A stretch of 64,000 bases of DNA, from positions 5,095-69,094 of the forward strand of contig JBMOFC010000005.1 in assembly GCA_049314455.1 (NCBI GenBank), in the 5' to 3' direction. Under the pieces are notes generated by a model that was not told where the DNA came from, did no database searches, and saw nothing but the letters and a program-made list of their open reading frames with translations. Source of the stretch: Chthoniobacterales bacterium. Lineage in GTDB: Bacteria > Verrucomicrobiota > Verrucomicrobiia > Chthoniobacterales > UBA6821. Made by a program: the position numbers and the translations under genes. Below are positions 4,408-56,492 of this stretch, piece after piece. Within the stretch, counting starts at the first letter, position 1, and every line of letters begins with the position of its first letter.

Positions 4408-4789
4408 GGGGGCGCACTGGTTTCGACCCGAAGCTGGTTATACGTTCTGCACGCCGAGGATGATCAGTTGGCCTCGTAAAAAATCTGGTCAACCAAATAA
4501 ATGCAAAAAATGCAAATATTGCAGCTAGCTTCGGCGAAACTGCAGCTCTCGCAGCTTAATTAATCTGCGACGTTCTCACACTGATGTCTATTAGGTGTGC
4601 GAGCGACACTAGTAGGCTCGTTTCACGGCGGAGAGACCGCGCTAGGAAACAAGATAATTCGTGGACTCTCGGAGAAGGGTAGCGCGGTGTATCGTAGTTC
4701 TTCTCCTAAATCAAAAATGCACATAAGCATGTAGACGGGCGTATTTGTTAGTCTCGGGCACAGGGGTTCAACTCCCCTCGCCTCCACCA
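4408..4789 (+). ncRNA. ssrA: tmRNA (SsrA)
   Basis: 5' GGGGGCG pairs with 3' CGCCTCC-A-CCA, with a G3:U wobble (alanine identity). T-arm GGGGTTCAACTCCCC. Internal tag frame 4503-4559 encodes AKNANIAASFGETAALAA followed by TAA. Confidence 0.9.
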
Positions 4790-5018: not shown

Positions 5019-6011
5019 ATGCGCCATTTTCAACATCTTCTCGAATCTCACTGGTCGCAAAGTCGTTTTGTCTGTGTGGGACTCGATAGTGAATTGTCCA
5101 AACTTCCCGCTTCTGCGCTACACTATGATCAGGAAGGGAACGTCGATAGTGCTGCAAGCTTGATCGCTTTTAACCGAGCCATCATTGAAGCAACACACGA
5201 TCTTGTCTGTGCCTACAAACCGAACACTGCCTTCTACGAAGCTTATGGAATCGCAGGGATGGTAGCCCTTGAAAAAACAATTTCTCTCATTCATGAAATT
5301 GCACCCACGGTTCCTGTCATTCTAGATGCGAAACGCGCTGACATTGGCAATACTAATAATGGCACTGTGACCTTTGCGTTTGATTACTTAAAAGCTGATG
5401 CGATCACACTTCATCCCTATCTGGGCAAAGAAGCCCTCGAACCCTTCCTAGCGCGCAAAGAAAAAGGGGCTATCATCCTCTGCAAGACCTCTAATGTTGG
5501 TTCAGATGAATTTCAAAATCTCATCGTCAATAGACTTTTTTCCAAACTCGCTGATGATGATGAAGGACAAGGCACTCCGGCGCACAGACCCGCAGTGTAC
5601 AAAGAAGTACCCGAGGACGCGAACACCGGGGTAACGCTGTCATTCGCACCAGCAGTAGAGTTTCGAAAGAAGTCTGATGAAGAGCCACTTTATAAAATCG
5701 TAGCAAGGCGTGTTGCCGAAGAATGGAACGCCAATGGAAACTGCGGTCTTGTAGTCGGCGCCACCTATCCCAAAGAAATCGAAGCTGTACGAAAGATTGC
5801 TCCAAATATGCCACTCCTTATCCCAGGAATTGGGGCTCAAGGAGGGTCTGTCGAACAAACAGTCGCTGCTGCACGCACGCAGCAAGGTACTAGGATGATC
5901 ATCAACTCCTCACGCGGCATTATTTTTGCTTCATGCGAAGAAGATTTTGCAGAAGCTGCACGTTGTGAGACAGAAAAGCTTCATCAGTTGATTCAAAAAG
6001 CAAACTCATGA
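5019..6011 (+). CDS. pyrF: orotidine 5'-phosphate decarboxylase, type 2, carrying a 48-residue repeat-derived insertion
   Basis: VCVGLD, YKPNTAFYE, DAKRADIGNT, KTSN and PGIGAQGG motifs. ATGA overlap with pyrE. 330 aa, against roughly 270-280 aa for type-2 homologues as I recall them. Confidence 0.9.
   Translation: MRHFQHLLESHWSQSRFVCVGLDSELSKLPASALHYDQEGNVDSAASLIAFNRAIIEATHDLVCAYKPNTAFYEAYGIAGMVALEKTISLIHEIAPTVPVILDAKRADIGNTNNGTVTFAFDYLKADAITLHPYLGKEALEPFLARKEKGAIILCKTSNVGSDEFQNLIVNRLFSKLADDDEGQGTPAHRPAVYKEVPEDANTGVTLSFAPAVEFRKKSDEEPLYKIVARRVAEEWNANGNCGLVVGATYPKEIEAVRKIAPNMPLLIPGIGAQGGSVEQTVAAARTQQGTRMIINSSRGIIFASCEEDFAEAARCETEKLHQLIQKANS
5531..5676 (+). mobile_element. family B MITE inserted in frame in pyrF
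   Basis: TA-GACTTTTTTCCAAACTC...GAGTTTCGAAAGAAGTC-TG with inverted termini. 142 nt plus a 2-nt duplication gives 144 nt. A near-identical copy in opposite orientation lies at 51928-52070. Confidence 0.8.
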
Positions 6012-8873: not shown

Positions 8874-8910
8874 CCCTCAAATTGAGTTCATCTCTTGAAT
8901 CCTTGTGAAT

Positions 8911-9936
8911 ATGCTGACCAGACTGACGCTCAGAAACTTTCGTTGTTTTTCTTCAAAGACCCTAGAACCGGCTCCAGGACTGAATTTCTTGGTTGGTCCC
9001 AATGCCCAAGGGAAAACCTCGCTGCTTGAGGCAGCCTGCGTCTTGCTTCGACTCAAGTCACCTCGGACACACGTGCTCGCTGAAGCTCTTCGTTTTGGAG
9101 AAGAATCTTTTTTTTTGGAAGGGAGTTATGGGAGCAAGGAGCTCTCAATGCGCTTTGCACCGGGGCAGCAGGTCAAACGACTCCTCAAAATTGATGATGT
9201 CACGCAGCAAGAGACAACCGATTATTTAAACAACGGTTGTGTTGTCTGGTTCGGAACCGATGATCGAGAAATCGTCAATGGTCCAGGAGAGCGGCGGCGG
9301 CGTTTCTTAGATAGCGTAGGATTACAGGTTGGCAGTGAGTATCGGCGTCATTTGAAATTCTATGACAAGGCGCTACGATCACGCAACATGCTCTTACGAA
9401 GACAACGTCCACGTCGTGAAGTTGAGGCCTATGACTCGGTGCTTTCCGAGAGTGGAGATGCCTTGATCAGCTTGAGAGGAGCTCTTTGCGAGGCTTTGAT
9501 ACCACATGCTGCGCATGCATGTGCAGCGATCTCCGGAGAAAAATTAAGTCTCGCCTACCAACCAGGCGCAACTACCCTGATGCAGGAAGCGTTAGAACAC
9601 TCTCGAGCCAAAGAGATGCAACTAGGAATGACGCTCGTAGGACCGCATCGAGACGAACTTCTCCTCACACTCAACACGATTCCAACAGCCACTTTTGGAT
9701 CGGAAGGACAACGCCGCACGGTAGCCTTGGCACTCAAGTTAGCCTTGGCCAACTTACTCCATACAGAAAAGTCAGCTCCACCGCTACTTTTGCTTGATGA
9801 TGTCTTTGGCGATTTAGATGCACACCGACGCCAAGCTCTTCTTTTAAGCATCCCCAAAGGATCTCAAGCATTGTTCACCACGACACAGCTGGAGAAAAAT
9901 GAGACTCCAGCGGAAGCAACTCTTTTGAGCTTTTAA
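8911..9936 (+). CDS. recF: DNA replication and repair protein RecF
   Basis: LTLRNFRCF N-terminus, Walker A GPNAQGKTSLLEA, signature FGSEGQRRTVALALKLA, Walker B LLLLDDVFGDLD. A GTG at 8905 is an alternative start. Confidence 0.85.
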   Translation: MLTRLTLRNFRCFSSKTLEPAPGLNFLVGPNAQGKTSLLEAACVLLRLKSPRTHVLAEALRFGEESFFLEGSYGSKELSMRFAPGQQVKRLLKIDDVTQQETTDYLNNGCVVWFGTDDREIVNGPGERRRRFLDSVGLQVGSEYRRHLKFYDKALRSRNMLLRRQRPRREVEAYDSVLSESGDALISLRGALCEALIPHAAHACAAISGEKLSLAYQPGATTLMQEALEHSRAKEMQLGMTLVGPHRDELLLTLNTIPTATFGSEGQRRTVALALKLALANLLHTEKSAPPLLLLDDVFGDLDAHRRQALLLSIPKGSQALFTTTQLEKNETPAEATLLSF

Positions 9937-10121
9937 GAAAAAGGGGCCAATAGGCCGAACTGACCCTATTTTTCTAATTGAAAAACGTTCAAATCTGCTT
10001 CACCCTCTGCGGATGATCTTCGACGGTTGCTTTGGATAATTCCAAGCAACATGTCACAAACCAAGGCAGATCGTTTCAAAAAATAAACTGCATCAAACAC
10101 CAAACCTAAAAATGAAATATT

Positions 10122-10856
10122 ATGGCTCCATTCCATTATAGCCCTGACGCCTCCCACTACCAAAACCTTCAACCAAATTATGCAGAGGTTTACAACATCG
10201 ATAAGAGCTATCATGTTCACGGAAAAGAATATGATTGGCGTCAAGAAAAATATGCCTGGGTCTTTTACCGCGTAGACGGAACCCAATTACCTTACGATCA
10301 TGAACAGCCTTATGGACCTAGTGAAGAGGACCCTTCTAAACCTTATTTACCAAGTGCAAGTAAGAAAGGCTTTTTGTATCAAGTTGAACCTACAAAAAAT
10401 GAAGATGTTTCTATAGAACCTAATGGAGCTCAATTATCAGCTTTAGATTCAGAACTTAAAGCTCATCCTATCACCTCAGACCCTTTATCTGCTTATAATC
10501 CTTATAACCCAGAAAGTCCTCTAGATCCTTATAATCCTAATCAATTTTTTGATGAAAATAAACCAGGAGAACATTGGTACAAAAAAGAAAAGAGCATTAT
10601 TATTAGTGCTAACACCGATAAGGAGTTTGAAACAAAGGTTGAAAATGCCTTAAATAAAGTAGAAATTGCAGCAAGTCAAGATTCCGATCCATCTCATCAT
10701 TACAGGATTAAATTAAAAAATTTAACGTATTCGGAGACTTTGTTGGATTTTAGTACTAATTTAACAGAACACTCAAATATTAAAGCTGTCTTTGATGTTT
10801 ATCAGGATTTTCAATCTTTGCAGAAAGCTATTGAAGATTCTTCTAACGCTCAATAG
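10122..10856 (+). CDS. hypothetical protein (orphan, A+T-richer, P/Y/N-rich middle)
   Basis: Long ORF followed by a canonical terminator. No domain recognised. Contains an NPYNPESPLDPYNPN motif. Confidence 0.5.
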   Translation: MAPFHYSPDASHYQNLQPNYAEVYNIDKSYHVHGKEYDWRQEKYAWVFYRVDGTQLPYDHEQPYGPSEEDPSKPYLPSASKKGFLYQVEPTKNEDVSIEPNGAQLSALDSELKAHPITSDPLSAYNPYNPESPLDPYNPNQFFDENKPGEHWYKKEKSIIISANTDKEFETKVENALNKVEIAASQDSDPSHHYRIKLKNLTYSETLLDFSTNLTEHSNIKAVFDVYQDFQSLQKAIEDSSNAQ

Positions 10857-10895
10857 TAGCAAACTAGAACCTTTCAAGTAATATCCTCCTCTCAA

Positions 10896-10929
10896 AGTGC
10901 CTGTGCTCCCAAGCGCAGGCACTTTTTTT
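10896..10929 (+). terminator. Rho-independent terminator
   Basis: AGTGCCTGTGC-TCCCAA-GCGCAGGCACT, an 11-bp stem with one G:U, followed by TTTTTT. Confidence 0.7.
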
Positions 10930-11043
10930 GTCAAAACACTCAAAACCTGCCTTCAATGGCATGGCTTTTGACTTTTAAGATTCCTTAAGCTAAGGTTAAA
11001 AGATGCGTACGACACTCAAGATTGATGAGGATTTTTCATAAAA

Positions 11044-12510
11044 ATGGAAATCCCTGACTATCCTTCCCACGAATGTGGTGTCTTTGCTGTGTATGGACAT
11101 CCTAATGCAGCTCTCCTTTCCTACTACGGACTTTTTGCCTTGCAACACCGAGGACAAGAGAGTGCCGGCATTGTCACGCATGCTGGCCACAAAACGCCCT
11201 TTCAGAGTGTCAAGCAGATGGGGCTTGTCTCGCAAGTGTTCAAAGAGGAGGATTTTGAAAGATTACGTGGCTCCTATGCCATCGGTCATGTCCGTTATTC
11301 AACCACTGGGTCGAGTAATCTTCTCAATGCACAGCCGCTTAGTGCCGATACCAGTCGTGGACAGTTGGCCATTGCCCATAATGGAAATTTGATCAATGCC
11401 GCGCGACTTCGTGCAGAGCTGGAGATGAAGGGATCCATTTTTCAGACGACTTCCGATAGCGAAATCATCCTCCTTCTCCTTGCACAACCTAGTACCACAG
11501 CCGAAACCACCAACCCACTGGCGGCATTACGAGAACTAGAAGGCGCTTTTTCTCTCGTCATCATGGGAGAAAAAGAAATTATCGGGGTACGCGATCCTCA
11601 TGGTTTTCGTCCACTCTCACTTGGAAAACTCGATGATGCCTGGGTTTTATCCTCGGAAACATGTGCTTTTGACCTGATTGGGGCTCATTTTGTACGTGAT
11701 CTTGAACCTGGAGAGGCCCTTATCATCAACGAATCAGGGCTCCACTCTGAGTTCCCCTTCAAAAGCAACCGCGAAGCCTTTTGTATTTTTGAGTACGTCT
11801 ATTTTGCACGTCCTGATAGCAACCTGCGTAACATCAATGTCAGCAAAGCGCGCGTACGCATGGGGCAAGAATTAGCACGTCTTCATCCAGTCGAAGCCGA
11901 TATCGTCGTTCCCATTCCTGACTCGGGAATCTATGCTGCGCTTGGATTTTCGGAAGAGTTAAACATTCCCTACGAACCTGCTTTTGTCAGGAATCATTAC
12001 ATTGGACGCACCTTTATTCAGCCAACACAGCTCGTACGTGACTTCAGTGTTCGTGTGAAGCTGAACCTCATCGGCTCTTATGTTAAAGGAAAGCGTGTAG
12101 TGGTAGTTGATGACTCGATTGTTCGAGGGACGACAGCCAAAAATCGTGTGGTCAATCTTCGAGAAGCAGGAGCCAAAGAAGTCCATCTGCGCATCAGCTG
12201 TCCACCCCATCGCCATGCTTGCTACTACGGGATCGACTTTCCAGATCCTGAAAAATTACTCGCCAATCAATATTCTCAAGAAGAATTATGCGCTCACTTA
12301 GGCGCTGATAGCGTCGGATACCTCGATGTCGCAGGAATGGTCAGAGCCACCCACCTCCCCAAAGAAAGCTTCTGTCTGGCCTGTTTTACCGGTGATTACC
12401 CGATTCCTTTTGATGCTTCTTTTGACAAACTGATCATGGAGCGGCGGCACGAGCAGGCTCATTTTTTACCAGATGAAACAAGCCAAACACCACTCTTTCC
12501 TAAAACCTAA
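11044..12510 (+). CDS. purF: amidophosphoribosyltransferase
   Basis: 10-residue propeptide then CGVFAVYG (the Ntn Cys), PRPP loop VVVVDDSIVRGTT and 4Fe-4S ligand cysteines (CPPHRHACYYGID, CLACFTGDYP). Confidence 0.92.
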   Translation: MEIPDYPSHECGVFAVYGHPNAALLSYYGLFALQHRGQESAGIVTHAGHKTPFQSVKQMGLVSQVFKEEDFERLRGSYAIGHVRYSTTGSSNLLNAQPLSADTSRGQLAIAHNGNLINAARLRAELEMKGSIFQTTSDSEIILLLLAQPSTTAETTNPLAALRELEGAFSLVIMGEKEIIGVRDPHGFRPLSLGKLDDAWVLSSETCAFDLIGAHFVRDLEPGEALIINESGLHSEFPFKSNREAFCIFEYVYFARPDSNLRNINVSKARVRMGQELARLHPVEADIVVPIPDSGIYAALGFSEELNIPYEPAFVRNHYIGRTFIQPTQLVRDFSVRVKLNLIGSYVKGKRVVVVDDSIVRGTTAKNRVVNLREAGAKEVHLRISCPPHRHACYYGIDFPDPEKLLANQYSQEELCAHLGADSVGYLDVAGMVRATHLPKESFCLACFTGDYPIPFDASFDKLIMERRHEQAHFLPDETSQTPLFPKT

Positions 12511-12521
12511 AAAGATAAAGA

Positions 12522-13142
12522 ATGTTACAGCTCATCACCCCTGAAAACTACCATGCTCATCAAGAAGATCTCCAGGCAATGTACCGCCTGCGCCACAAGA
12601 TTTTTTTTGAGCAACTCCGATGGGATGTCACCAGTGAAAACGGAATGGAACGAGATCAGTATGATGAAACACAGATGTATTACCTCATCTATAAGGATCA
12701 AGAAGGGATTATTCGTGGTTCCCTCCGATTGATAGAAATGATCCATGAATGCATGTTTGATGGCCCTTTTAATTTCATGCTTCCTAACTTAAAAAAATTC
12801 AAAAAAAAAGGCTTCTGGGAAATAAGTCGCTTATACATACATGGCTACGATGACTTACTCGACCATCCCTCAGAAGCTAAAATAATATACCGTCATCTTT
12901 TTGCAGGAATAATTCATTTTGGATTAGCAAATCATAAAACAACTTCTTTTTTAGCAGTCTCATATCCTTCTGCTTTGAGACTCCATAATATGGCGGGAAT
13001 GCAATGGAGTTCTTTATATCAATCTGTGATTAACAACGAGGCCATTATCTCTGCTCAATACTCTCCTTCGCAAGAGTGCTATGAAAAATTGATTCAAAAA
13101 GGAGAATTAAACACCCAATTCCCTCCTTACACTATAATTTGA
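12522..13142 (+). CDS. LuxI-family acyl-homoserine-lactone synthase-like protein (Autoind_synth / N-acyl amino acid synthase fold)
   Basis: R24-x3-F28-x5-W34-x8-E43-x-D45-x2-D48, then R69 and E100-x-S102-R103. These line up with the invariant residues recalled for LuxI/TraI. Length 206 aa is typical. Confidence 0.6.
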   Translation: MLQLITPENYHAHQEDLQAMYRLRHKIFFEQLRWDVTSENGMERDQYDETQMYYLIYKDQEGIIRGSLRLIEMIHECMFDGPFNFMLPNLKKFKKKGFWEISRLYIHGYDDLLDHPSEAKIIYRHLFAGIIHFGLANHKTTSFLAVSYPSALRLHNMAGMQWSSLYQSVINNEAIISAQYSPSQECYEKLIQKGELNTQFPPYTII

Positions 13143-13164
13143 TAGCCTCAGAAAATATTCCTCT

Positions 13165-14286
13165 ATGCTTCTCTCCCCTACTTCTAAAACTTCTTCTCCA
13201 AAAAATTTATCTGCGTCACACCTCCTCGCTAAAAAAGCCACAATAAGCTCCTATGCGAAGGCTGGTGTTAATGTAGCGCTCGGCAACCAGGTAAAATCAG
13301 GCATTGGCAAGATTGTTCGCCCGACGCATGGCCCTGAAGTCTTAGGCGGTATCGGCGGTTTTGGAGGGCTATTTCAACCCGATTTTAAAAAACGGGCTAT
13401 TAAAAACCCGGTCCTTGTCTCTAGTACCGATGGTGTGGGGACAAAGCTCAAAATCGCTTTTGCCACCAACTGCCATGACACCATTGGTGCGGATTTAGTG
13501 AATCATTGTATCAATGATATTTTGGTGACCGGGGCAGAGCCTCTTTTTTTCTTAGATTACGTAGCGGCAGAAACACTCGATCCCAAGGTGCTCAACGCCA
13601 TCCTCAAAGGTCTCGCACGTGCCTGCAAAACAGCTGGCTGTGCCCTAATCGGTGGTGAGACAGCACAGATGCCAGGCCTCTACCATCCAGGAGAATACGA
13701 TCTGGCTGGAACTATTGTCGGGGTGGTAGATCGTAAGCAACTGCTCGATGGAAGCCGTGTAAAAATCGGCGATCTCCTCATCGGCCTCCCCTCTCATGGG
13801 CTTCATACCAATGGCTATACGCTGGCCCGTCAGATTCTTTTTGAAACCATGAAACTAAAACTCTCGAGCAAGCCCAAGAATCTGACCACGACGCTCGAAG
13901 CCGAATTGCTTAAAATTCATCGTTCCTATCTTCCCGAGTTCAAAGCGATCAGGTCTCTCGGAGCCACAACGTTGCACGCTGCAGCACACATCACTGGTGG
14001 AGGACTTATCGACAATCTTCCTCGCATTCTTCCTAAGACCTGTGACGCCTGGATTGATACGGATACGTGGCAGATCCCCCCTATTTTCAAACTCCTCTGC
14101 CAGGGAGGTGGCGTAGATCCTCTTGAAATGTACCGGGTGTTCAACATGGGGATCGGCATGGTCTTTGTTGTTACTGCAAAAGAAGCCACGTCTATTGCCA
14201 AAAAACTCAAAGGAAAAATCATTGGAGAAATCGTTTCTGGTCGTGGAAATGTCCAGCTGGCTGCTTCGCAGCAGTTGAAGTTTTAA
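13165..14286 (+). CDS. purM: phosphoribosylformylglycinamidine cyclo-ligase (AIR synthetase)
   Basis: YAKAGVNV, GGFGGLF, DGVGTK and GGETAQMPG motifs. About 25-residue S/T/K-rich N-terminal extension. Confidence 0.9.
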   Translation: MLLSPTSKTSSPKNLSASHLLAKKATISSYAKAGVNVALGNQVKSGIGKIVRPTHGPEVLGGIGGFGGLFQPDFKKRAIKNPVLVSSTDGVGTKLKIAFATNCHDTIGADLVNHCINDILVTGAEPLFFLDYVAAETLDPKVLNAILKGLARACKTAGCALIGGETAQMPGLYHPGEYDLAGTIVGVVDRKQLLDGSRVKIGDLLIGLPSHGLHTNGYTLARQILFETMKLKLSSKPKNLTTTLEAELLKIHRSYLPEFKAIRSLGATTLHAAAHITGGGLIDNLPRILPKTCDAWIDTDTWQIPPIFKLLCQGGGVDPLEMYRVFNMGIGMVFVVTAKEATSIAKKLKGKIIGEIVSGRGNVQLAASQQLKF

Positions 14287-14296
14287 ATTGAAGTTA

Positions 14297-14497
14297 AACC
14301 GGATATTTCATACTCATTCTGCTGCGGCTTGTAAGATTCTTATGTATACTGCGTCAGTTTCGAATTGCTCATCGGGCAGTATGTACTCATACAGCCACGT
14401 CATTCCCGCGAAGGCGGAAACGTCGCAATCCATTGACTTCCTTGTCTACATAAGGCTGTGCGGCGCCTCGCGACAAATCAGCATGAAATATTCAGGT
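14297..14497. repeat. family C palindromic element
   Basis: AACCGGATATTTCATAC...GCATGAAATATTCAGGT termini and a central GTCATTCCCGCGAAGGCGG hairpin. Inverted copy at 47551-47832 and a fragment at 20962-20980. Confidence 0.75.
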
Positions 14498-14612
14498 TAG
14501 AGCGTTTTAAAAAGAGTTATAGCCAATGTAGTGCCAGGAACGAGGAGCGCAGACCCGCAGTGTATAACTAATACTCGAGGACGCTAGCACCGGCGCGACA
14601 TTGTTACGCGTA
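14498..14612. mobile_element. family A MITE, left half only (truncated)
   Basis: TA-GAGCGTTTTAAAAAGAGTTATAGCC...GAGCGCAGACCCGCAGTGTATAACTAATACTCGAGGACGCTAGCACCGG. The right terminus is absent. Confidence 0.65.
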
Positions 14613-14705
14613 CTCTCAGTAGAGTATGAATACATATTATTAAATTCAGTAGTTCACCTTAAACTTATCACTTAAACTGGCGCAAAATAGTTATTGGCTG
14701 CTTGT

Positions 14706-15704
14706 ATGAAAAATCGTCATTCCTATTTTAAGAGCTCGGAAAAAAGAATTTCGCGCCATGGCTTAAGTGTTGGCGCCGGATTAGGAGTTGGACTCATCGG
14801 AGCCTTAGCATTGGCTATTCGCTTCGGATGGCGCCATCCTCTGCGGAAACAAATTCCTGATGCGATCTCCCCAGCTGTTTTTGCAACACGAGTTCTTAAT
14901 ACTCCTTCTGGAGAGATTGTTTATCACACCTCAGGAAATGGAACTCCCCTTCTTTTTTTACATGGGGTTTTTCCAGGGGCCTCTTCTTTTGAATGGTCCA
15001 AGATTTATCCTCACTTCGCACCCAACCATCAGGTTTTAGTGCCTGACCTTATCGGCTTTGGAGAATCTCAACGGCCTCGTCCTGCCATTAGTGCAGAAGC
15101 TCAGGTGAAGGCTCTTGCCGCATTTTTTCAAATCACCAATGGTTCTCCGGCGACACTCATTGTCTCGGGATTAAGTGCTAACCTGGCCTTGTTACTGGCT
15201 GCTCACTATCCCGAGCATGTGGCACGACTTATTTTGTGGATGCCTCTTTTAACCCTACCAAAAAAAGTTTTTACTAGTTTCTATCAGCCTCTTTCTTGGT
15301 TTCCTGCACTCGCTCGTATTGTTTATCAACGACACTGGAGTACCGAGGCCACGATTCAGCAGTGGCTCTTGCGTTCAGGATTTTCTATAGGGGATTCTTG
15401 TCTCCAAGAAACAGTCGCTGTTCTCTCCTCCACAGCTCAGCAATATGGAGCTGAACATGCCTTTTTAGCTCAAAGTTCTCCCGCCTTCTGGAAAAAAATT
15501 GTACGCAAGATACCCGCTATCAGCGTCCCAATTTCTCTCCTCACCACCCAAGACTGCGAACGTCAAACAACCGAAGCCATCGCACATCTTCGTCCTCACG
15601 CAAGTCGCTTTTCTATGAATAAAGTAGAAACCAAAAGTCTACTAGCCCCACTCACCGAGCCTCACTTGCTCCTTGGTGCAATGGAACATGAATTAAAAAA
15701 CTAA
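14706..15704 (+). CDS. membrane-anchored alpha/beta-fold hydrolase family protein
   Basis: N-terminal TM helix, oxyanion-region LLFLHGVFPG, and a nucleophile elbow reading SGLSAN (G-x-S-x-N rather than G-x-S-x-G). Confidence 0.55.
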   Translation: MKNRHSYFKSSEKRISRHGLSVGAGLGVGLIGALALAIRFGWRHPLRKQIPDAISPAVFATRVLNTPSGEIVYHTSGNGTPLLFLHGVFPGASSFEWSKIYPHFAPNHQVLVPDLIGFGESQRPRPAISAEAQVKALAAFFQITNGSPATLIVSGLSANLALLLAAHYPEHVARLILWMPLLTLPKKVFTSFYQPLSWFPALARIVYQRHWSTEATIQQWLLRSGFSIGDSCLQETVAVLSSTAQQYGAEHAFLAQSSPAFWKKIVRKIPAISVPISLLTTQDCERQTTEAIAHLRPHASRFSMNKVETKSLLAPLTEPHLLLGAMEHELKN

Positions 15705-15950
15705 TATCTAGAGCCTGTTCGAAAAATTGATTTTTTGAAGAGAGTGATTTCTTGACTTGAAATCAGCATTCTATCAGACCAATTAAAAAGTAAAGGATGG
15801 CGAGTTTAGCAACTTGCCTGCAGCAAGATCGAACTAAAAGAATTTATTCATGGCACATGAATGTTGAATGAGCCTCTCTCCAAAATTGCACCCTTGAAAT
15901 AAAATCAATGTGCTGTATCCTGCCCCTTCATTTTATTTTTTAAATACACG

Positions 15951-17546
15951 ATGATCACACTCGCTTCTCTCCTCTGTAATTCCTCATGCTGGGCTGTTTC
16001 TATCGATGCGGCCGTTGTTCTTCTCTATTTTGCAATCATTATTGGGATCGGTCTCTATGCTGGCCGCAACAATAAGACATTGGAGGAGTTTGCTCTTGGT
16101 GGTCATTCTATCCCATGGTGGGCTGTGCTTGCTTCTATTGTAGCTGCCGAAACAAGTGCTGCCACGTTTCTTGGAACACCAGCAGAAGGGTACAAGACAC
16201 ATGCTTTTTTCTATGCCCAACTCGCCATTGGAACGGTGCTAGCCCGTATCATCATCGCCTACACCTTCATCGCTCCCTACTACCGCTACAAAGTAAAAAG
16301 TATCTATGAATTTTTGACTGTCCGTTTTGGAACCGCTACTAAAAACACAGCAAGCGCTATTTTCCTTTTCACACGCGTATTAGGAATTGGGGTCCGTCTT
16401 TACTTAGGCGGTCTTATCCTCGTAGTCCTCTGGCATTATTTCTATCCAGGAGCCCCCACAACCCTCTCCCACTATTTCTGGGGTATTTTAATCATTACCC
16501 TCATCACTACCGGATACACCATGGTTGGTGGTATTAAGGCTGTTGTTTGGACCGATCTCATTCAGGCTTCGCTCATGATTGGATCCGTTGCCCTAGCAGT
16601 ATGGCTTCTTCTCAGTCGTATTGGAGGCCTCAGTGCGGTTAAAGAAACATTTGGCAGCTGGGAAAACTTAAAATGGATTCAAAGTGATTGGGATACCACT
16701 ATTCCGTTTGGATCAGCTCTCTCCAAAATGCTTGCAGAACCCTATACGCTTTGGGCCGCTTTTATTGGATCAACTTTTTTGACCATGGCCACTCATGGTA
16801 CCGACCAGGATATGGTACAACGTCTCCTCACTGCTAAAAATGTTCAGAAGTCACGTCTCTCCCTCATTCTAAGCGGCTTTGCAGACATTCCACTAGCATT
16901 AGCCTTTTTAAGTGTGGGCATTCTTCTCTTTGTCTACTACTCCCACGTGGGAGCTCCTGCTATACCCGACAACGAAATTTTCGCCCATTTCATTGTCAAT
17001 AGTATGCCCGTAGGATTACGTGGATTGATTATTGCTGGCGTCTTAGCAACCATGATGGGATCGACCTCTGCTGCTCTCAATGCCCTCGCTACAAGTTTCA
17101 CGACTGATTTTTACATTCCCTACATCAACCCTAAGGCTGATGATCGTGCTTCCATTCGAGCAGCACGTGTGGCCACACTGGTTTTTGGAATCTTGATGAT
17201 TGGTGTTGGCACCATGGCTGCATATTCAGTGCTCCTCAATCCTCGACTCACTATTATTCCGATTGCCATCGGCATCTTGGGATACACCTATGGAGGACTT
17301 CTTGGTATTTTCTTGGTTGGCATGCTCACCACCACACGAGGCCATGATAAGACCAATGTCGTTGCCATGCTCCTCGGAATGACCAGTGTACTCTTTCTCG
17401 GCAAAGTCGAACTTCCTGGCATCATCAACTTCGGTCACTTCATGCCAACATGGTGGCCAGAAATTGCCTGGCCTTGGTATGTTTTCATCGGAAGCATGGT
17501 GACTATTCTCTGCGCACTGCCGTTTAGAACAGAAACCCGTTCATAG
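15951..17546 (+). CDS. sodium:solute symporter (SSS) family transporter
   Basis: About 13 TM helices and SSS-type motifs (GGHSIPWWAVLASIVAAETSAATFLG, GGIKAVVWTDLIQ). Confidence 0.8.
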   Translation: MITLASLLCNSSCWAVSIDAAVVLLYFAIIIGIGLYAGRNNKTLEEFALGGHSIPWWAVLASIVAAETSAATFLGTPAEGYKTHAFFYAQLAIGTVLARIIIAYTFIAPYYRYKVKSIYEFLTVRFGTATKNTASAIFLFTRVLGIGVRLYLGGLILVVLWHYFYPGAPTTLSHYFWGILIITLITTGYTMVGGIKAVVWTDLIQASLMIGSVALAVWLLLSRIGGLSAVKETFGSWENLKWIQSDWDTTIPFGSALSKMLAEPYTLWAAFIGSTFLTMATHGTDQDMVQRLLTAKNVQKSRLSLILSGFADIPLALAFLSVGILLFVYYSHVGAPAIPDNEIFAHFIVNSMPVGLRGLIIAGVLATMMGSTSAALNALATSFTTDFYIPYINPKADDRASIRAARVATLVFGILMIGVGTMAAYSVLLNPRLTIIPIAIGILGYTYGGLLGIFLVGMLTTTRGHDKTNVVAMLLGMTSVLFLGKVELPGIINFGHFMPTWWPEIAWPWYVFIGSMVTILCALPFRTETRS

Positions 17547-17868: not shown

Positions 17869-18203
17869 ATAGTGTGTTAGAGCGTTTTAAAAAATTCTGT
17901 AGCCGATGCATTGTCAGAACACGACCCGACGGGAGTCGGTTGGGTAGACTGCTGTTAGGCAGACAAGCAGTGTAGCCAGCTATACTTGAGGACGCGAGCA
18001 CCGGAGTGACACCACAAGGCGTGGCTATAGAGTTTTTTAAAATGCTCTAAATCGATAAAGGCACGCTATAAACTGCCTCTTTTTCCTTATAACTGTGTTC
18101 TCAGATCTTACGTTATCTTCAGATAGCGCCTCAATCTTCGGCCCTTGTCCTAAGAAAAAATTTTAGCGCTTCTAGTCCGTCCTTTTCAATTTAAAACACT
18201 ATA
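17869..18203. mobile_element. family D MITE (copy D1) interrupted by a family A MITE
   Basis: TA-TAGTGTGTTA...TTAAAACACTA-TA. Outside the insertion it is collinear with the uninterrupted copy at 51699-51866. Confidence 0.8.
17879..18050. mobile_element. family A MITE (copy A1) with TA target-site duplication
   Basis: TA-GAGCGTTTTAAAAAATTCTGTAGCC...GGCTATAGAGTTTTTTAAAATGCTC-TA, about 28-nt terminal inverted repeats. The empty site in D2 reads GTGTGTTAAATCG with a single TA. Confidence 0.85.
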
Positions 18204-36546: not shown

Positions 36547-38196
36547 TCAAGTTATCCTTGTAGCGCTACGCATAGCGTTTCTAAGATGTCTGAACATAAA
36601 GTCTCCAATTGTTAATTCATCCCAGTTGCCAAGTCTTTGTCCTTTGGTTAATAATCCTGGTTTAGTGCGTTGAAGCCGCCAGCCCTGACCATTCAAAATA
36701 TCCCTGCGCTCAGCTGGAGTAGCAGCATTGTTTAACTTTTCTAACAATTGAGGAGTTATTTTAGAAAGTTCGTTGGTAAAAGTAGGAGAGTTAGGATTGA
36801 TGCGTCCATCTTCATCATCCTGTCCATTATAAAGTTTGATTTCATCATTAATAAGATTGCTATAGGTATTGATCATTAACCTGTATTCTGGATCCTCACA
36901 GTCTATAGCATCTTCTAAAAGAATGCCTAGGATAGCTCCTTGAGCTGTTTCCCCCACTGCCTCCACATCATCGGAATCAATAGTATCTTTCGTCTCACTG
37001 CCTAGAGGGGTCTTACTTAAGATTAAATAAGGAGTTTCAACTTTTTCCCCATCAGCAATTTTCATGGAAATAGGAAAGTGAAGCTCGCCCATAAGAATAC
37101 CAATCACACCGAAGTTTAGTTCTCCTTTTTGAGAGAGTCCATGAATCGCCTCAGCCATATACTTAGGGTTGGTTCCTCCCTGATCGAGTAATTTCCTGAT
37201 ACTGGAAGCCAGATTGTTCGTCTTTTCTACAGAGTCGAGAGGAGCTCCAGTTGTGAGCTTGCTTTGCGCTTCATACTCTTTCAGAAGTTTCACCGCGACA
37301 ATAGCAGCGTTCCCAGCTTGTTTAGGAGTATCAATGGCAATGTAAGAGATGAGCTTATTTTGAATGTTAGCATTCTCATAAAAATGGAGCAAAATTCCGG
37401 CAAGACGAGCAGGTTCATTTTCAAGTAAGTCTTTTAATTTCTCTCTGAGATCCGGAATATTTTTAACAACAGTGTTTATTTCCGTATCAGAGGTAATGTC
37501 ATCGAGCGAAGAAAAAAGCAGCTCTTCTATTTGATGCGGATCACCCTCAAGTAAGTCAGGTATTGAGGAGGTAGCTGATTTCAAGGATGAGCTGCTCGAC
37601 GATCGAAACAAACTTATAACGGGACCGTTATAAGGTAAAACATGCTCCGTTGTTGATAGATGCGATTCAGTTATAACGTGTTCTATTTTATGAGAACCGT
37701 CCGGACCTAAAAATGAATCGCTACTATTATGAGGTTGAGTTGCATCATTTGAAACTAGCTTGCTAGAAATATCACCCTCACCTGTGCTGCTTCCAGAAAG
37801 ATCTACGACGTGCAAATCTGACAAAGAAGAAACACTTTGATCAGAAGAAGTAGATAAGTTTCTATCAATTTTTCCATTTTCATTGAGAGCATCAAAAGCT
37901 GGTCGCTCACCATTATCACCATTATTTAAAAATCCCTCTGTTTTCGAAGATTCACTACTTCGAGAAGAAGGAAATGAGAGCCTCCTATTTAAGTTATGGA
38001 ATGCACTTCTTACGAGCTCTAGAGGTGATGTAAATTTTATAGATAATCCCAGAAAGTATTTTGTTGAGCCCTCATTTATTTTTGAGCCTTCGGATAAATT
38101 TGAAATGCTACTAGCTCGCTCGATCGTGTTCCTAGTTCCAGAGAAAAACCAGCCACGAAAATTGGGGCTCTTTCCAGTAACACCTGATTCGCTCAT
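36547..38196 (-). CDS. hypothetical protein (orphan) with an approximately 230-residue Ser-rich disordered N-terminal region
   Basis: Long uninterrupted ORF converging on the previous gene (5-nt gap). No domain recognised. Confidence 0.5.
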   Translation of the reverse strand: MSESGVTGKSPNFRGWFFSGTRNTIERASSISNLSEGSKINEGSTKYFLGLSIKFTSPLELVRSAFHNLNRRLSFPSSRSSESSKTEGFLNNGDNGERPAFDALNENGKIDRNLSTSSDQSVSSLSDLHVVDLSGSSTGEGDISSKLVSNDATQPHNSSDSFLGPDGSHKIEHVITESHLSTTEHVLPYNGPVISLFRSSSSSSLKSATSSIPDLLEGDPHQIEELLFSSLDDITSDTEINTVVKNIPDLREKLKDLLENEPARLAGILLHFYENANIQNKLISYIAIDTPKQAGNAAIVAVKLLKEYEAQSKLTTGAPLDSVEKTNNLASSIRKLLDQGGTNPKYMAEAIHGLSQKGELNFGVIGILMGELHFPISMKIADGEKVETPYLILSKTPLGSETKDTIDSDDVEAVGETAQGAILGILLEDAIDCEDPEYRLMINTYSNLINDEIKLYNGQDDEDGRINPNSPTFTNELSKITPQLLEKLNNAATPAERRDILNGQGWRLQRTKPGLLTKGQRLGNWDELTIGDFMFRHLRNAMRSATRIT

Positions 38197-39868: not shown

Positions 39869-41410
39869 TTGTTGGGAACACTTATTGAGCCAGCCGCAGC
39901 AGGCAGCTCAGAGGCTGTAACATCAGTTGCCTCTCCTTTTCACTTATCTGCTGCCTCTGGCACTTCAAAGATCACTGCTCCTGTTCAAAAACTCTCTCAA
40001 AGTGAGGCTCAAGAAATTAAAAATAATCTTTATTTTAGACAGCTCGTTGATGATTTTGACAATCGGCAACCAGAATTAGGAACTTTTTGTAGAGAACATG
40101 GTGCTTACGCGGTGGCGAGATATGCAAGCGCCTATGATGAACATAGTTTTAAAGAACCAGGAATGATAAGGACGCTTCAACATGCATCAACCGAGAGACG
40201 CGATGATTTTATATCAGATTGTTTAGAGTATCGAGAATCCGATACAGCTCATGATGAGCATGCTGGATATCTTGAATTTGAGCAATTGGTTGATCGTTCA
40301 CTTTCTGCTTCTAGCGCTTCGATATTTGGGGACCTTGAAAGGTTTTCCTTTCTCTGGGGTACCAATGCAGTGAAAAAACATGTGGCTAACTATCTTGAAA
40401 AGCACAGTCTAAAAAAAGAATTTCAGTTGCGTCTTAGTGAGTTTGTCTTAATTTGTTTAACATTCTCAACCTCAGGCCATATAACTGCGCTTGAGAAGTC
40501 TAATTTGTTGGATCTATATAAAAAAGCCCCCTCACCGGTCAGCGCTGTGTTAGCTCCTGTGGTAGATAAATTGGATGAATTAAGCCTTCATCACATGCAA
40601 AACCAAATAAGGGATGGTGCAGCTGATCTCAATCGCTGGAAAAATGATATTGATTCTATCCATCAAACAATAACAACAGCTTTAAGAGAAACCACAAGCA
40701 CTTTGGAGGAGATAACTCGTGAAGGAGAAGAAATCATAACTTCTTGTGAGCAGTTGAATCAAGAATACGAAGCAAAAGGCAATAAAGCACCTGTTGATGT
40801 CGAGAAGGTACAACAAGCCGTTAATGGTCTTCTTGCATTCCATGTAAAAGATCTCGGTGATGAAGAGCAACTCACTCTTTTCAATGAAGAAAAGGAATCC
40901 GCTTTATCTATTCTGAAATCTTTTGAAACATTAACTCCCCCTTCTAGTACAGCTCTACAACAAAAGGTTACGCAATTTTTAGAGAATTTTCAGCAATCTA
41001 AAGACCTTATTGCTACAACAGAAAAAATTGCAAAGGATGAAACTGATAAAGAATTGGCTATCGCTTTGGAGAAGCGCCAGAAAAATAGCAAAGATAGATT
41101 TAGCAGATCCCATAAAGTTGTGTTGCAGAATGCGTCTATTTTTGAACATCAATACCAAGAAGATAAAGAAATTTTATTAAGAAAGGCTTGCTCTGAGCGT
41201 GAAAATTTTTTGTTCAATGTAGCGAGCGTGCTAGAATATCAAGAAATATCAATGAGCTTAAAGGATACTGATTTTTTTAAAACTTACTTAGAAACAAAAA
41301 AAAACTTGCTTACAATTAAAGATGAGGTTCGTAAAGAATTACCTACTCTGGCAAGTCGATTACTAGAAACGTATCTTGCAGAAGCAGAAAGCGTTCAAAA
41401 CGATTCGTGA
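39869..41410 (+). CDS. hypothetical coiled-coil-rich protein (orphan); possibly a nonsense-interrupted gene starting at 39764
   Basis: ORF from a TTG at 39869. The same frame has ATG at 39764, 20 codons, then TAA at 39824-39826. Confidence 0.45.
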   Translation: MLGTLIEPAAAGSSEAVTSVASPFHLSAASGTSKITAPVQKLSQSEAQEIKNNLYFRQLVDDFDNRQPELGTFCREHGAYAVARYASAYDEHSFKEPGMIRTLQHASTERRDDFISDCLEYRESDTAHDEHAGYLEFEQLVDRSLSASSASIFGDLERFSFLWGTNAVKKHVANYLEKHSLKKEFQLRLSEFVLICLTFSTSGHITALEKSNLLDLYKKAPSPVSAVLAPVVDKLDELSLHHMQNQIRDGAADLNRWKNDIDSIHQTITTALRETTSTLEEITREGEEIITSCEQLNQEYEAKGNKAPVDVEKVQQAVNGLLAFHVKDLGDEEQLTLFNEEKESALSILKSFETLTPPSSTALQQKVTQFLENFQQSKDLIATTEKIAKDETDKELAIALEKRQKNSKDRFSRSHKVVLQNASIFEHQYQEDKEILLRKACSERENFLFNVASVLEYQEISMSLKDTDFFKTYLETKKNLLTIKDEVRKELPTLASRLLETYLAEAESVQNDS

Positions 41411-43119: not shown

Positions 43120-43343
43120 TAGAGCATTTTAAAAAATTCTGTAGTTGGGTGCATTGTCAGAATACGACCCGACGGGAGTCGGTCGGGCAGACTGCCGTTA
43201 GGCAGCCCAGCAAGGGCGAGGTGAGCTTCGCAAAGCGAGTCAAACGAGGAGCGCAGACCCGCAGTGTAGCCAGCGATACTCGAGGACACGAGCACCGGAG
43301 TGACAGTACAAGGAGCGGCTACAGAATTTTTTAAAATGCTCTA
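43120..43343. mobile_element. family A MITE (copy A2), TA-flanked
   Basis: TA-GAGCATTTTAAAAAATTCTGTAGTT...GGCTACAGAATTTTTTAAAATGCTC-TA. About 52 nt longer internally than A1. Confidence 0.85.
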
Positions 43344-47442: not shown

Positions 47443-47550
47443 GGGATAAAATTATTTTTAAATTTAAGGCGCCTCATCATCTTGATCAGGCATAAGGCAT
47501 AAACTCTAATAAACCTGTCAAGAGGGAGATGCTACGTTGAGGGACTTTTA

Positions 47551-47832
47551 ACCCAGATATTTCATGTTGATTCGACGCAAGGCGTCGCGCAGCTTGAGGG
47601 AACAAGGCGGGCGATGAGTTGCACCGTTCCCGCCTTCGCGGGAATGACGTGGCTGTATATGTACATATTGACTTGCTTGGCAAAGCTCGTCTCGCCCCTT
47701 TGGGGCTTTCCTTCAGAAAGTCTATCCAGCGCTCTCCCGAGCAGCTGCATTGCCCGAGGAGCAATTAGAGACCAACGCAGTCCCCATCAGGCTCTCACAA
47801 GCTGCAGCAGAATCAGTATGAAATATCCGGGT
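47551..47832. repeat. family C palindromic element (inverted relative to 14297-14497)
   Basis: ACCCAGATATTTCATG...CAGTATGAAATATCCGGGT with a central GTTCCCGCCTTCGCGGGAATGACGTGG hairpin. Confidence 0.75.
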
Positions 47833-51927: not shown

Positions 51928-52070
51928 TAGATTTCTTTCGAAATTCTACTGCTGATACGAACAACAGTATTGCTCCGGTGCTCGCGCCCTCGAGTACCTC
52001 TTTGTATACTGTGAGTCTGCGCGCCGAAGCGCCTTGTTCTTCATCATCAGCGAGTTTCGAAAGAAATCTA
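51928..52070 (-). mobile_element. family B MITE, intergenic copy (B2)
   Basis: TA-GATTTCTTTCGAAATTC...GAGTTTCGAAAGAAATC-TA. Its reverse complement aligns along the whole pyrF insert. Confidence 0.8.
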
Positions 52071-55280: not shown

Positions 55281-56492
55281 CTAATCTTTGTTGTGTTTAT
55301 AAAAATCGCTGATGTCGTCATAAACTTTTCTTTTATTTCGATCAATATCAACAATACCCCACCACTTTTCATGAAAGATATGATCGGGAGCAGGGCCGGA
55401 AAATTTAGAAATAGTGTCATCCTCCTGAAAATCATCGGGGTATCTGCGTATTTGAAAATCAGGATTTTTTGTAAAATACCATCCTTCAGGACCATGTTCT
55501 TCTGGCGACCCTGCTCCCTTCCACCACTCATCACTCCATTCAAAAACTGATCCTCCAACAAGAACCTTGTCACGATTTTTAGAAGAGAGATTATCCTGAA
55601 TTTCTCTCAGTAGCGCCATGACAGCAGTAGATTGAGAAGCCTCATCCTTACCACCACTATTGTTATTGATATTAGCATTGAAAGCAGTAGCTCCAAATTC
55701 TGAAACATAGAGTGGTTTACTACTTATTTTTTGCCATCGTGTAAAATAAGATCCAAAGCTACTACCATCGTAAATATTACTCCCGTAAAGCTCTATTTTT
55801 TCATCAATTTTACAATCAGCTATTTTTTGCCAAAAGTCATCGTCTGGTAAATCCCCAACAACAGAGCTCACAGGATGAGTAGTATCTTCCGATTTTATAA
55901 TATCAATAGCATTTTTCAGAAGCTCCAAAGGATCTGTGCTTCCCGTATATTCCTTGCGTTGGGAGTCAGTTAAATCATTAATATAAAATTTATTGTAATT
56001 CCACTCGTTTCCAACCTCCCAAATAAGTGTCGATGGTTTATTTTTGAGTAGAGAGACTGTTTTTCTCAGTTCATCATCAGAGGTCCCAAAAGCACTCTTA
56101 TAGACATTAACAATAGTTCTTAGATGATACTTATCCAGTAAAGAAAGAACCTTCTCATTCGTAATGGGATTATAGATTCGTATCACATTAAATCCTGCCT
56201 CTTGTATCATTTGAAAATCATGCTCAAGAAGAACTAAATTTTCTCGAGTAGGTTCTTTATTAAAAAGATTATCAGTAGAACTCTCTCCCTTAGGAACAGG
56301 GCTGTAGCAAATCGACCTGATGGTAAAAGGAGTTCCATCAATGAGTAGTTGCCTCCCCTGTACCTGAATATTGCCTGTCAGTGGAGCAGGCTTGCCATCA
56401 AGAATAGGAAAAGAAGCACGTGCATCGGCAGCTGCAAAATAAAAGAGTAGCAAAAAACATGTTAATAAATTTTTAAAAAAAGGAGCTCTCAT
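55281..56492 (-). CDS. secreted clan GH-A glycoside hydrolase-like protein, paralogue of 53581-54804
   Basis: Collinear motifs QGRQLLIDGTPFTIRSICYSP, AGFNVIRIY, LIWEVGNEWNYN, PLYVSEFGATAF and the C-terminal HEKWWGIVDIDRNKR. Confidence 0.6.
   Translation of the reverse strand: MRAPFFKNLLTCFLLLFYFAAADARASFPILDGKPAPLTGNIQVQGRQLLIDGTPFTIRSICYSPVPKGESSTDNLFNKEPTRENLVLLEHDFQMIQEAGFNVIRIYNPITNEKVLSLLDKYHLRTIVNVYKSAFGTSDDELRKTVSLLKNKPSTLIWEVGNEWNYNKFYINDLTDSQRKEYTGSTDPLELLKNAIDIIKSEDTTHPVSSVVGDLPDDDFWQKIADCKIDEKIELYGSNIYDGSSFGSYFTRWQKISSKPLYVSEFGATAFNANINNNSGGKDEASQSTAVMALLREIQDNLSSKNRDKVLVGGSVFEWSDEWWKGAGSPEEHGPEGWYFTKNPDFQIRRYPDDFQEDDTISKFSGPAPDHIFHEKWWGIVDIDRNKRKVYDDISDFYKHNKD

Follow-up and report, generated by a model that had tools for sequence, protein, structure and literature searches.

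A 64,000-nucleotide stretch of contig JBMOFC010000005.1 from the assembly of a Chthoniobacterales bacterium (GCA_049314455.1), referred to here as the window, carries a homologue of the LuxI-family N-acyl-homoserine lactone (AHL) synthases between the purine-biosynthesis genes purF and purM. From sequence comparison and a structural model we consider it probable that this luxI is an intact AHL synthase gene which was acquired horizontally by a freshwater member of the Verrucomicrobiota, and that it is likely read through from the purF promoter. The gene and its two neighbours are as follows.

12522..13142, + strand: luxI, LuxI-family (Autoind_synth) AHL synthase homologue, 206 amino acids (aa), ATG start, PF00765 at 87.2 bits
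11044..12510, + strand: purF, amidophosphoribosyltransferase, 488 aa, a native verrucomicrobial gene, TIGR01134 at 522 bits
13165..14286, + strand: purM, phosphoribosylformylglycinamidine cyclo-ligase, 373 aa, native, TIGR00878 at 361 bits, syntenic with loci L016-L021 of near relatives

An earlier reading, made from the sequence only, had named these flanking genes and put the spacers at 11 nucleotides (nt) between purF and luxI and 22 nt between luxI and purM. The TIGR01134 and TIGR00878 profile scores identify both flanks, and the spacers are as claimed, with purF ending at 12510 and purM starting at 13165.

Family, fold and acyl donor of the luxI product

The ten residues which the sequence-only reading had picked out (R24, F28, W34, E43, D45, D48, R69, E100, S102 and R103) were all confirmed on translation. 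Each matches an identical residue of LasI (1ro5) and TofI (3p2f) in alignment, and all ten are invariant across an alignment with the seven closest homologues. Among them, the residue set R, F, W, D, D, R, E, R of the S-adenosylmethionine/acyl-transfer site is complete (R24, F28, W34, D45, D48, R69, E100, R103); the conserved LuxI set has been given as R25, F29, W35, D46, D49, R70, E101 and R104 (PMC12781772). The proposed LuxI-family membership is upheld by the profile search, which puts the protein inside Autoind_synth: PF00765, whose gathering score is 24, gave 87.2 bits (E 1.3e-24), with residues 12-183 matched to model positions 5-175 of 183 (171 of 183 covered). The best NCBIfam matches, the TraI-type equivalogs, fell far below their cut-offs (NF052393, 71 against 250 bits; NF010408, 62.6 against 292 bits). 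Judged on its profiles, the luxI product is no TraI orthologue and belongs to a separate LuxI subfamily.

Comparison with solved structures led to the same family. All significant matches in a sequence search of the PDB were AHL synthases (TofI, LasI, BjaI, MesI, RpaI and EsaI), and a profile of the eight closest sequences matched LasI (2.7e-15), TofI (9.9e-15), EsaI (3e-12) and BjaI (4.5e-9). An AlphaFold2 (AF2) model, built on an eight-sequence alignment and of low confidence at residues 35-43, reached a mean predicted local distance difference test score (pLDDT) of 78.5 and a predicted template modelling score (pTM) of 0.80. When this model was compared with the PDB using Foldseek, ranks 1-12 were all AHL synthases, with template modelling (TM) scores of 0.64-0.79, i.e., BjaI at 0.79 (E 2e-13), RpaI at 0.78-0.79, MesI at 0.73, LasI at 0.72 and TofI at 0.66.

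The earlier reading had offered as an alternative an N-acyl amino acid synthase of the PEP-CTERM-associated family. More broadly, the protein would then be no AHL synthase and instead a related GNAT-type enzyme of either the PEP-CTERM/exosortase-associated or the FeeM type. FeeM (2g0b) and the TIGR03694 type have a related GNAT-like fold and an overlapping N-terminal motif, PF13444 (Acetyltransf_5), which the window protein also matches above the cut-off (26.3 against 22.4 bits); there is also a sub-threshold match to TIGR03694, the PEP-CTERM-associated acyltransferase (E 4e-11), and FeeM is present in the fold search. However, Autoind_synth stands 61 bits ahead of PF13444 and covers the whole domain, the TIGR03694 match, at 42.7 bits where the cut-off is 111.95, takes in the N-terminal 94 residues only, and FeeM comes after rank 12, with a TM score of 0.54 (E 7e-7) against 0.79 (2e-13) for BjaI. 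R24, F28, W34, D45, D48 and R69 are also all present as in LasI and TofI, the close homologues adjoin Autoind_bind/GerE receptor genes, and, unlike the PEP-CTERM/exosortase-associated type, luxI has no exosortase or PEP-CTERM gene near it among the window open reading frames (ORFs) scanned. Given the failed TIGR03694 cut-off and the weaker fold match of FeeM, this identity was rejected, and we regard it as highly improbable.

From its family membership, the enzyme would be expected to acylate the alpha-amine of S-adenosylmethionine using either acyl-acyl carrier protein (acyl-ACP) or acyl-coenzyme A (acyl-CoA), after which lactonisation would free an N-acyl-homoserine lactone and 5'-methylthioadenosine. 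LasI of Pseudomonas aeruginosa and TofI of Burkholderia glumae, which are acyl-ACP-dependent, have the Pfam family, the fold and the ten conserved residues in common with the window protein and are its best profile matches among solved structures, yet overall identity is only ~20%. Their genes adjoin a cognate LuxR gene and are autoinduced. In contrast, the window luxI has no LuxR gene within 64 kb, lies inside a purine operon and belongs to a host from the Verrucomicrobiota, not the Pseudomonadota. The best structural matches are BjaI, RpaI and MesI (5w8a, 6wn0, 6wns; TM 0.73-0.79), acyl-CoA-dependent enzymes of Alphaproteobacteria, whose profile match is weaker than that of LasI and TofI and confined to the N-terminal half.

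These comparisons bear on a further possibility, that the gene encodes a functional but non-canonical LuxI homologue using a branched, aryl or otherwise unusual acyl-CoA to make an atypical homoserine lactone. The order of the fold search, in which BjaI and RpaI, and with them MesI, stand ahead of LasI and TofI, speaks for acyl-CoA use, as does the membership of a distinct, uncharacterised subfamily with nine representative clusters below E 1e-30. On the other hand, the profiles prefer the ACP-dependent LasI and TofI over BjaI, and the differences in TM score may reflect only the completeness of the crystal structures; we think it decidedly unlikely that such an enzyme is encoded here. The residue aligned to T144 of LasI is S147, in a region where the alignment is uncertain. 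By what we take to be the rule for EsaI and LasI, S147 at this site would hint at a 3-substituted acyl chain, a lead only.

Insertion between purF and purM and its likely source

The earlier reading had taken the host to be a PVC-type genome (Planctomycetota, Verrucomicrobiota, Chlamydiota), and the PurF identities place it in the Verrucomicrobiota. PurF is 94% identical to a metagenome protein, 92% identical to proteins titled 'MAG: Verrucomicrobiae bacterium' and 'Verrucomicrobia bacterium', and 72-81% identical to proteins of Chthoniobacterales and Terrimicrobiaceae. Runs in which the locus occurs carry the label freshwater metagenome.

In six syntenic loci, which represent four near relatives, purM comes straight after purF; nothing is encoded in between, and none of the six has a luxI. 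The inserted segment and the spacers of the relatives are listed below.

12511..13164, + strand: inserted segment of ~654 bp (11-nt leader, luxI ORF and 22-nt trailer), from blastn and junction alignments against L019
L019 and L020: PurF identity 94%, purF-purM spacer 8 nt
L016-L018: PurF identity 92%, purF-purM spacer 149 nt
L021: PurF identity 88%, purF-purM spacer 13 nt

By blastn, window positions 10890-12510 correspond to L019 1687-3309 at 86% identity and positions 13188-14279 to L019 3325-4420 at 83% identity, and the junction alignments set the two breakpoints immediately behind the stop codon of purF and at the start of purM. Since the relatives have purF and then directly purM, the ~650 bp that hold only luxI are a lineage-specific insertion. 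A gene-sized piece of this length would have landed exactly in a purF-purM spacer of 8-13 nt. The surroundings of the insert show neither target-site duplications nor terminal inverted repeats nor mobility genes, only short repeats at chance level. Two further genes lie downstream of purM.

14694..15704, + strand: alpha/beta-hydrolase gene, downstream of purM (Pfam Abhydrolase_1)
15951-17546: SSF transporter gene, downstream of the alpha/beta-hydrolase gene (Pfam SSF)

The hydrolase gene follows purM in all of the relatives except on the short contig L020, and the SSF gene is found in L016-L018 and L021; with this order kept in relatives that have no luxI, synteny downstream of purM is conserved.

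A second low-GC ORF stands close to the insertion, in the recF-purF interval (10122-10856, + strand; 244 aa, GC 0.354, GC at third codon positions (GC3) 0.245, no Pfam domain), where L019 holds only a 68-aa ORF. It was considered as part of the luxI acquisition or as a hidden receptor and rejected on both counts: Pfam gives it no domain, and the homologues that it has, at 33-46% identity, are hypothetical proteins of verrucomicrobial origin, one of them on the L021 contig. Going by these homologues, it is a fast-evolving lineage-specific gene outside the luxI insertion.

Because the composition of luxI and its nearest relatives are unlike those of its flanks and the depth is low (~5x), we considered whether an alphaproteobacterial fragment had been stitched into a verrucomicrobial contig during assembly or binning. 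Independent Logan contigs from run X1 (12338-13073 and 13048-13712) and run X2 (12495-12866) match the window with 0 mismatches and between them cross both insert junctions, and the depth is 5.1 over luxI against 5.2 over the flanks. Furthermore, the insert is exactly gene-sized and stands in an operon collinear with the relatives on both sides. No joint corresponding to an empty purF-purM site was seen in runs X1 and X2, at their low depth of ~5x. The purF-luxI-purM arrangement is thereby shown to be no chimera, and an artefact is scarcely credible.

Close relatives of the protein are rare. A search of 5.8 billion proteins gave eight, the best at 50% identity, and nine representative clusters fell below E 1e-30 among 1.84 billion. 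In JGI metagenome contigs nothing exceeded 47% identity and there was no second purF-luxI-purM locus; a single-protein query of GTDB representative genome contigs gave no match. GTDB representative genomes yielded 11 loci at 41-47% identity, every one of them with an alphaproteobacterial title: four are Holosporales/Paracaedibacteraceae, and the rest are titled Alphaproteobacteria, Proteobacteria or Pseudomonadota, with one Candidatus Pelagibacter. The locus GC of these relatives is 0.34-0.40, and the names of several of their metagenome-assembled genomes (MAGs) resemble lake or pond sample codes.

In a neighbour-joining (NJ) tree the window protein falls inside an alphaproteobacterial-type LuxI group which, together with one to three further representatives, forms a branch apart from all other LuxIs in 94 or more of 100 NJ bootstraps. 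Kimura distances did not return the 32-member clade as an exact bipartition, and P0141, P0143 and P0138 join on re-analysis. The nearest relatives, a subfamily represented by loci L001-L013 and L022-L031, are 41-50% identical to the window protein and have in common with it 32 invariant positions, including the motif I-E-M-x-x-x-C-M-F-D, and a similar low-GC amino-acid composition. We infer that the source of the window gene was this subfamily, otherwise known from low-GC Holosporales, Paracaedibacteraceae and other alphaproteobacterial MAGs. The horizontal acquisition which the earlier reading had suggested is thus supported by the empty purF-purM sites in relatives and by the alphaproteobacterial subfamily, evidence far stronger than composition.

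The window copy also differs from these relatives. Subfamily luxI genes are often tandemly duplicated, whereas the window copy is single and in a different phylum, and one to three Autoind_bind genes (with or without GerE) usually lie within ~3 kb of them, whereas the window copy has none nearby. LuxR homologues were found within ~3 kb at 10 of the 13 loci L001-L013 and at 4 of the 10 loci L022-L031, several of which are very short. Given these LuxR-type genes, the relatives look like genuine LuxI/LuxR systems. At loci L001-L013, L023, L026, L028 and L031 there are often tandem LuxI paralogues with two to three Autoind_bind genes, and some of the subfamily Autoind_bind proteins are short (~175-190 aa), without the GerE DNA-binding domain. 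These loci apparently represent an uncharacterised, elaborate AHL system in alphaproteobacterial MAGs; we found no published description of this Holosporales-type LuxI subfamily.

Two other loci are of a different kind. L022 (6001-6702; JGI Ga0208872_1001074) has a subfamily luxI of 44% identity alone among housekeeping genes, flanked by genes for a folC-like Mur ligase and an EipB-like protein and near aroK/aroB, with a local GC dip and no LuxR gene within 6 kb, in a host that looks alphaproteobacterial; solo copies of the subfamily embedded among housekeeping genes are thus not unique to the window. L032 (2221-2595) is a truncated LuxI, 66% identical to the window protein over the first 85 residues, the highest identity seen, with a phage-integrase gene 1.1 kb away on its 2.6-kb contig of 33% GC. 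This hints that the LuxI subfamily can travel on mobile elements.

Receptor, transcription and state of the gene

In agreement with the earlier reading, which had seen no LuxR-type regulator, neither PF03472 (Autoind_bind) nor PF00196 (GerE) matched any of the 44 window ORFs of at least 150 aa. A hidden Markov model (HMM) built from the LuxRs cognate to the subfamily gave a best E of 0.64 over all window ORFs of at least 50 aa. The absence of a LuxR gene holds for these 64 kb only. The 11-nt leader between purF and luxI is too short for a ~20-bp lux box. Upstream of purF lies one feature which may mark the start of the operon.

10894..10925, + strand: strong terminator-like hairpin upstream of purF, with a T run behind its 14-bp stem; homology to L019 resumes at 10890

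This hairpin is probably the 5' boundary of a purF-luxI-purM transcription unit. There is no terminator-like site at either luxI spacer, and weak + strand matches occur only within purF (12059) and purM (13531); promoter-like and terminator-like matches were not enriched over shuffled sequence. With all three genes on the same strand, spacers of 11 and 22 nt and no terminator-like site between them, co-transcription of luxI with purF and purM is plausible. In the preferred reading luxI would lack an evident promoter and terminator and would be read through from the purF promoter. Because there is no LuxR gene in 64 kb and no room for a lux box in the leader, signal output would then follow expression of the purine operon, i.e., growth or purine demand, instead of LuxR positive feedback. 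Such a signal could be read by an unlinked receptor of the host itself or by LuxR-bearing alphaproteobacteria, whose MAG and sample names suggest freshwater.

The A+T-richness which the earlier reading had taken as a sign of acquisition is real, luxI having a GC of 0.380 where 44 window ORFs average 0.451 (z = -2.1), and a sliding-window GC of 0.35-0.37 over the gene against 0.47-0.50 over the flanks. It stems mainly from amino-acid composition and not from synonymous sites. GC at the first and second codon positions (GC1/GC2) is 0.464/0.304, compared with 0.431/0.302 in the subfamily and 0.546/0.406 in the host (GC2 z = -3.0), and GC3 is 0.372, near the host mean of 0.402 ± 0.058 (z = -0.5) and at the top of the subfamily range (0.291 ± 0.041). 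Four other window ORFs (39869-41410, 55281-56492, 36547-38196 and 59433-61133) have a GC of 0.37-0.40 and a GC3 of 0.28-0.32, and three of the four are without a Pfam domain; as these are as low in GC as luxI or lower, low GC alone is an unreliable marker of foreign origin here. A host-like GC3 combined with subfamily-like GC1/GC2 would point to long residence with the protein preserved, and we infer partial amelioration of synonymous sites under a preserved protein as the simplest reading. In this one sequence, the pattern argues mildly for maintenance by selection. The luxI ORF is intact and keeps 23 of the 26 positions at which the subfamily is conserved to 90% or more.

Several points weigh against a functional, acquired AHL synthase. 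The acyl donor is ambiguous, with profiles favouring ACP-dependent LasI and TofI and the fold search ranking CoA-dependent BjaI, MesI and RpaI first. Within the subfamily, 22 of 100 bootstraps grouped the window protein with a proper subset, and no donor has been sampled. It is possible that a receptor lies elsewhere in the genome, unlinked to luxI. Two metatranscriptomes from the same study gave zero coverage of 10800-14400, which is uninformative at ~5x DNA depth. The protein carries three substitutions at subfamily-conserved positions, C67S, A105Y and D107H, more than most full-length members, and these could reflect relaxed constraint or altered specificity. The cysteine at the position of C67 is widely conserved in LuxI proteins but is not known to be catalytic. 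Finally, luxI is a singleton, with no full-length match above 50% identity among the 5.8 billion proteins, GTDB representatives and JGI contigs, so selection in the host lineage is not measurable.

Some of these points would fit a neutral or decaying passenger, i.e., a real LuxI homologue that makes no functional signal and has been tolerated since expression of purM is undisturbed. Its absence from all sampled relatives and searched collections, the want of a receptor gene within 64 kb and the three substitutions favour such a passenger, and there is a precedent for a silent solo synthase in AgpI of Archangium gephyra, which gave no AHL in axenic culture (PMC7862692). However, AgpI was active when expressed in E. 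coli (PMC7862692). In the window gene the 206-codon ORF is intact, with the ten invariant residues and 23 of 26 subfamily positions kept, and the AF2 model is predicted to fold confidently as an AHL synthase. GC3 has moved towards the host and GC1/GC2 have not, whereas stops or frameshifts would be expected in a freely evolving pseudogene. We regard a passenger as rather unlikely, and an acquired, intact synthase gene remains the reading that we prefer.

Genomic context, known solo synthases and significance

The remainder of the window consists of ordinary chromosomal genes, among them those for tmRNA, pyrF, recF, yidC, proS, frr, purH and glgB, with hydrolases of the glycoside hydrolase families GH5 and GH2-like, and transporters. 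The tmRNA gene (4408-4789, + strand; Rfam RF00023, 147 bits) encodes the tag peptide AKNANIAASFGETAALAA. A short intergenic repeat family, resembling repetitive extragenic palindromic (REP) elements or miniature inverted-repeat transposable elements (MITEs), is found at 14299-14625, with partial copies at 47549-47830 (- strand), 2059-2107, 43243-43305, 5579-5661, 51945-52025 (- strand) and 17876-17917 and also at L019 5933-6034. The depth of run X1 over the repeat region 14222-14623 is 45-50x against ~5x in the flanks, indicating many variant copies in the community or the genome. In L016-L018 and L021, compared with window 8905-17546, the purF-purM-hydrolase-SSF block adjoins dnaN/dnaA, with topA and an amino-acid permease gene upstream, and in the window and L019 recF lies upstream of the purF block instead. 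The purF-purM region is near the replication origin and is rearranged between lineages.

Solo AHL synthase genes have been described before. The solo synthase AgpI is known from Archangium gephyra only, where it is silent in culture; expressed in E. coli, it is active (PMC7862692). Ruegeria sp. KLH11 is reported to have a luxI-type gene of the solo kind (PMC4811643), and luxI solos are known from Sphingomonadaceae (PMC4288048) and Actinomycetota (PMC13136126). The window gene resembles AgpI and the other solo LuxIs in being an AHL synthase homologue with no adjacent receptor gene. It differs from them in its verrucomicrobial host and its place in a purF-purM operon, and the absence of a receptor gene extends over 64 kb only. 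LuxI proteins from Nitrospirota and Pseudomonadota MAGs, including those of uncultured genera, were active in heterologous expression (PMC12781772). In a survey of 2015, Verrucomicrobia (Methylacidiphilum) had LuxR solos only and no LuxI (PMC4338825). We found no published LuxI in Verrucomicrobiota or in a purF-purM operon, which is no proof of novelty. The window luxI belongs to a known enzyme family and is no new kind of system; it is the phylum and the insertion context that are unusual, and the opinion of the sequence-only reading that a LuxI between purF and purM in such a host would be out of the ordinary is supported.

It could be imagined that a free-living freshwater verrucomicrobium has taken one synthase out of the quorum-sensing system of co-occurring Holosporales-like alphaproteobacteria and now broadcasts their AHL 'dialect' constitutively and coupled to growth, for mimicry or interference directed at other species instead of self-sensing, although we put this forward as speculation that is doubtful at best. 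If this speculation were true, it would be the first AHL production in Verrucomicrobiota and the first quorum signal coupled to a purine-biosynthesis operon. The context is unusual in any case, as luxI sits in a housekeeping operon, probably without a separate promoter, and has no receptor gene in the 64 kb. As horizontal transfer, the case is unusually clean, with empty sites in four near relatives, independently verified junctions and a plausible donor which may share the habitat. The comparisons further point to an uncharacterised LuxI/LuxR subfamily in alphaproteobacterial MAGs labelled Holosporales/Paracaedibacteraceae, with synthases in tandem and with several receptors, part of which are truncated. 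If the enzyme is active, its signal would report growth or purine demand and not cell density, which would suit interspecies signalling or interference and not quorum sensing in the classical sense. AHL signalling is still regarded as essentially a trait of the Pseudomonadota, and each supported synthase elsewhere widens the range of possible signallers.

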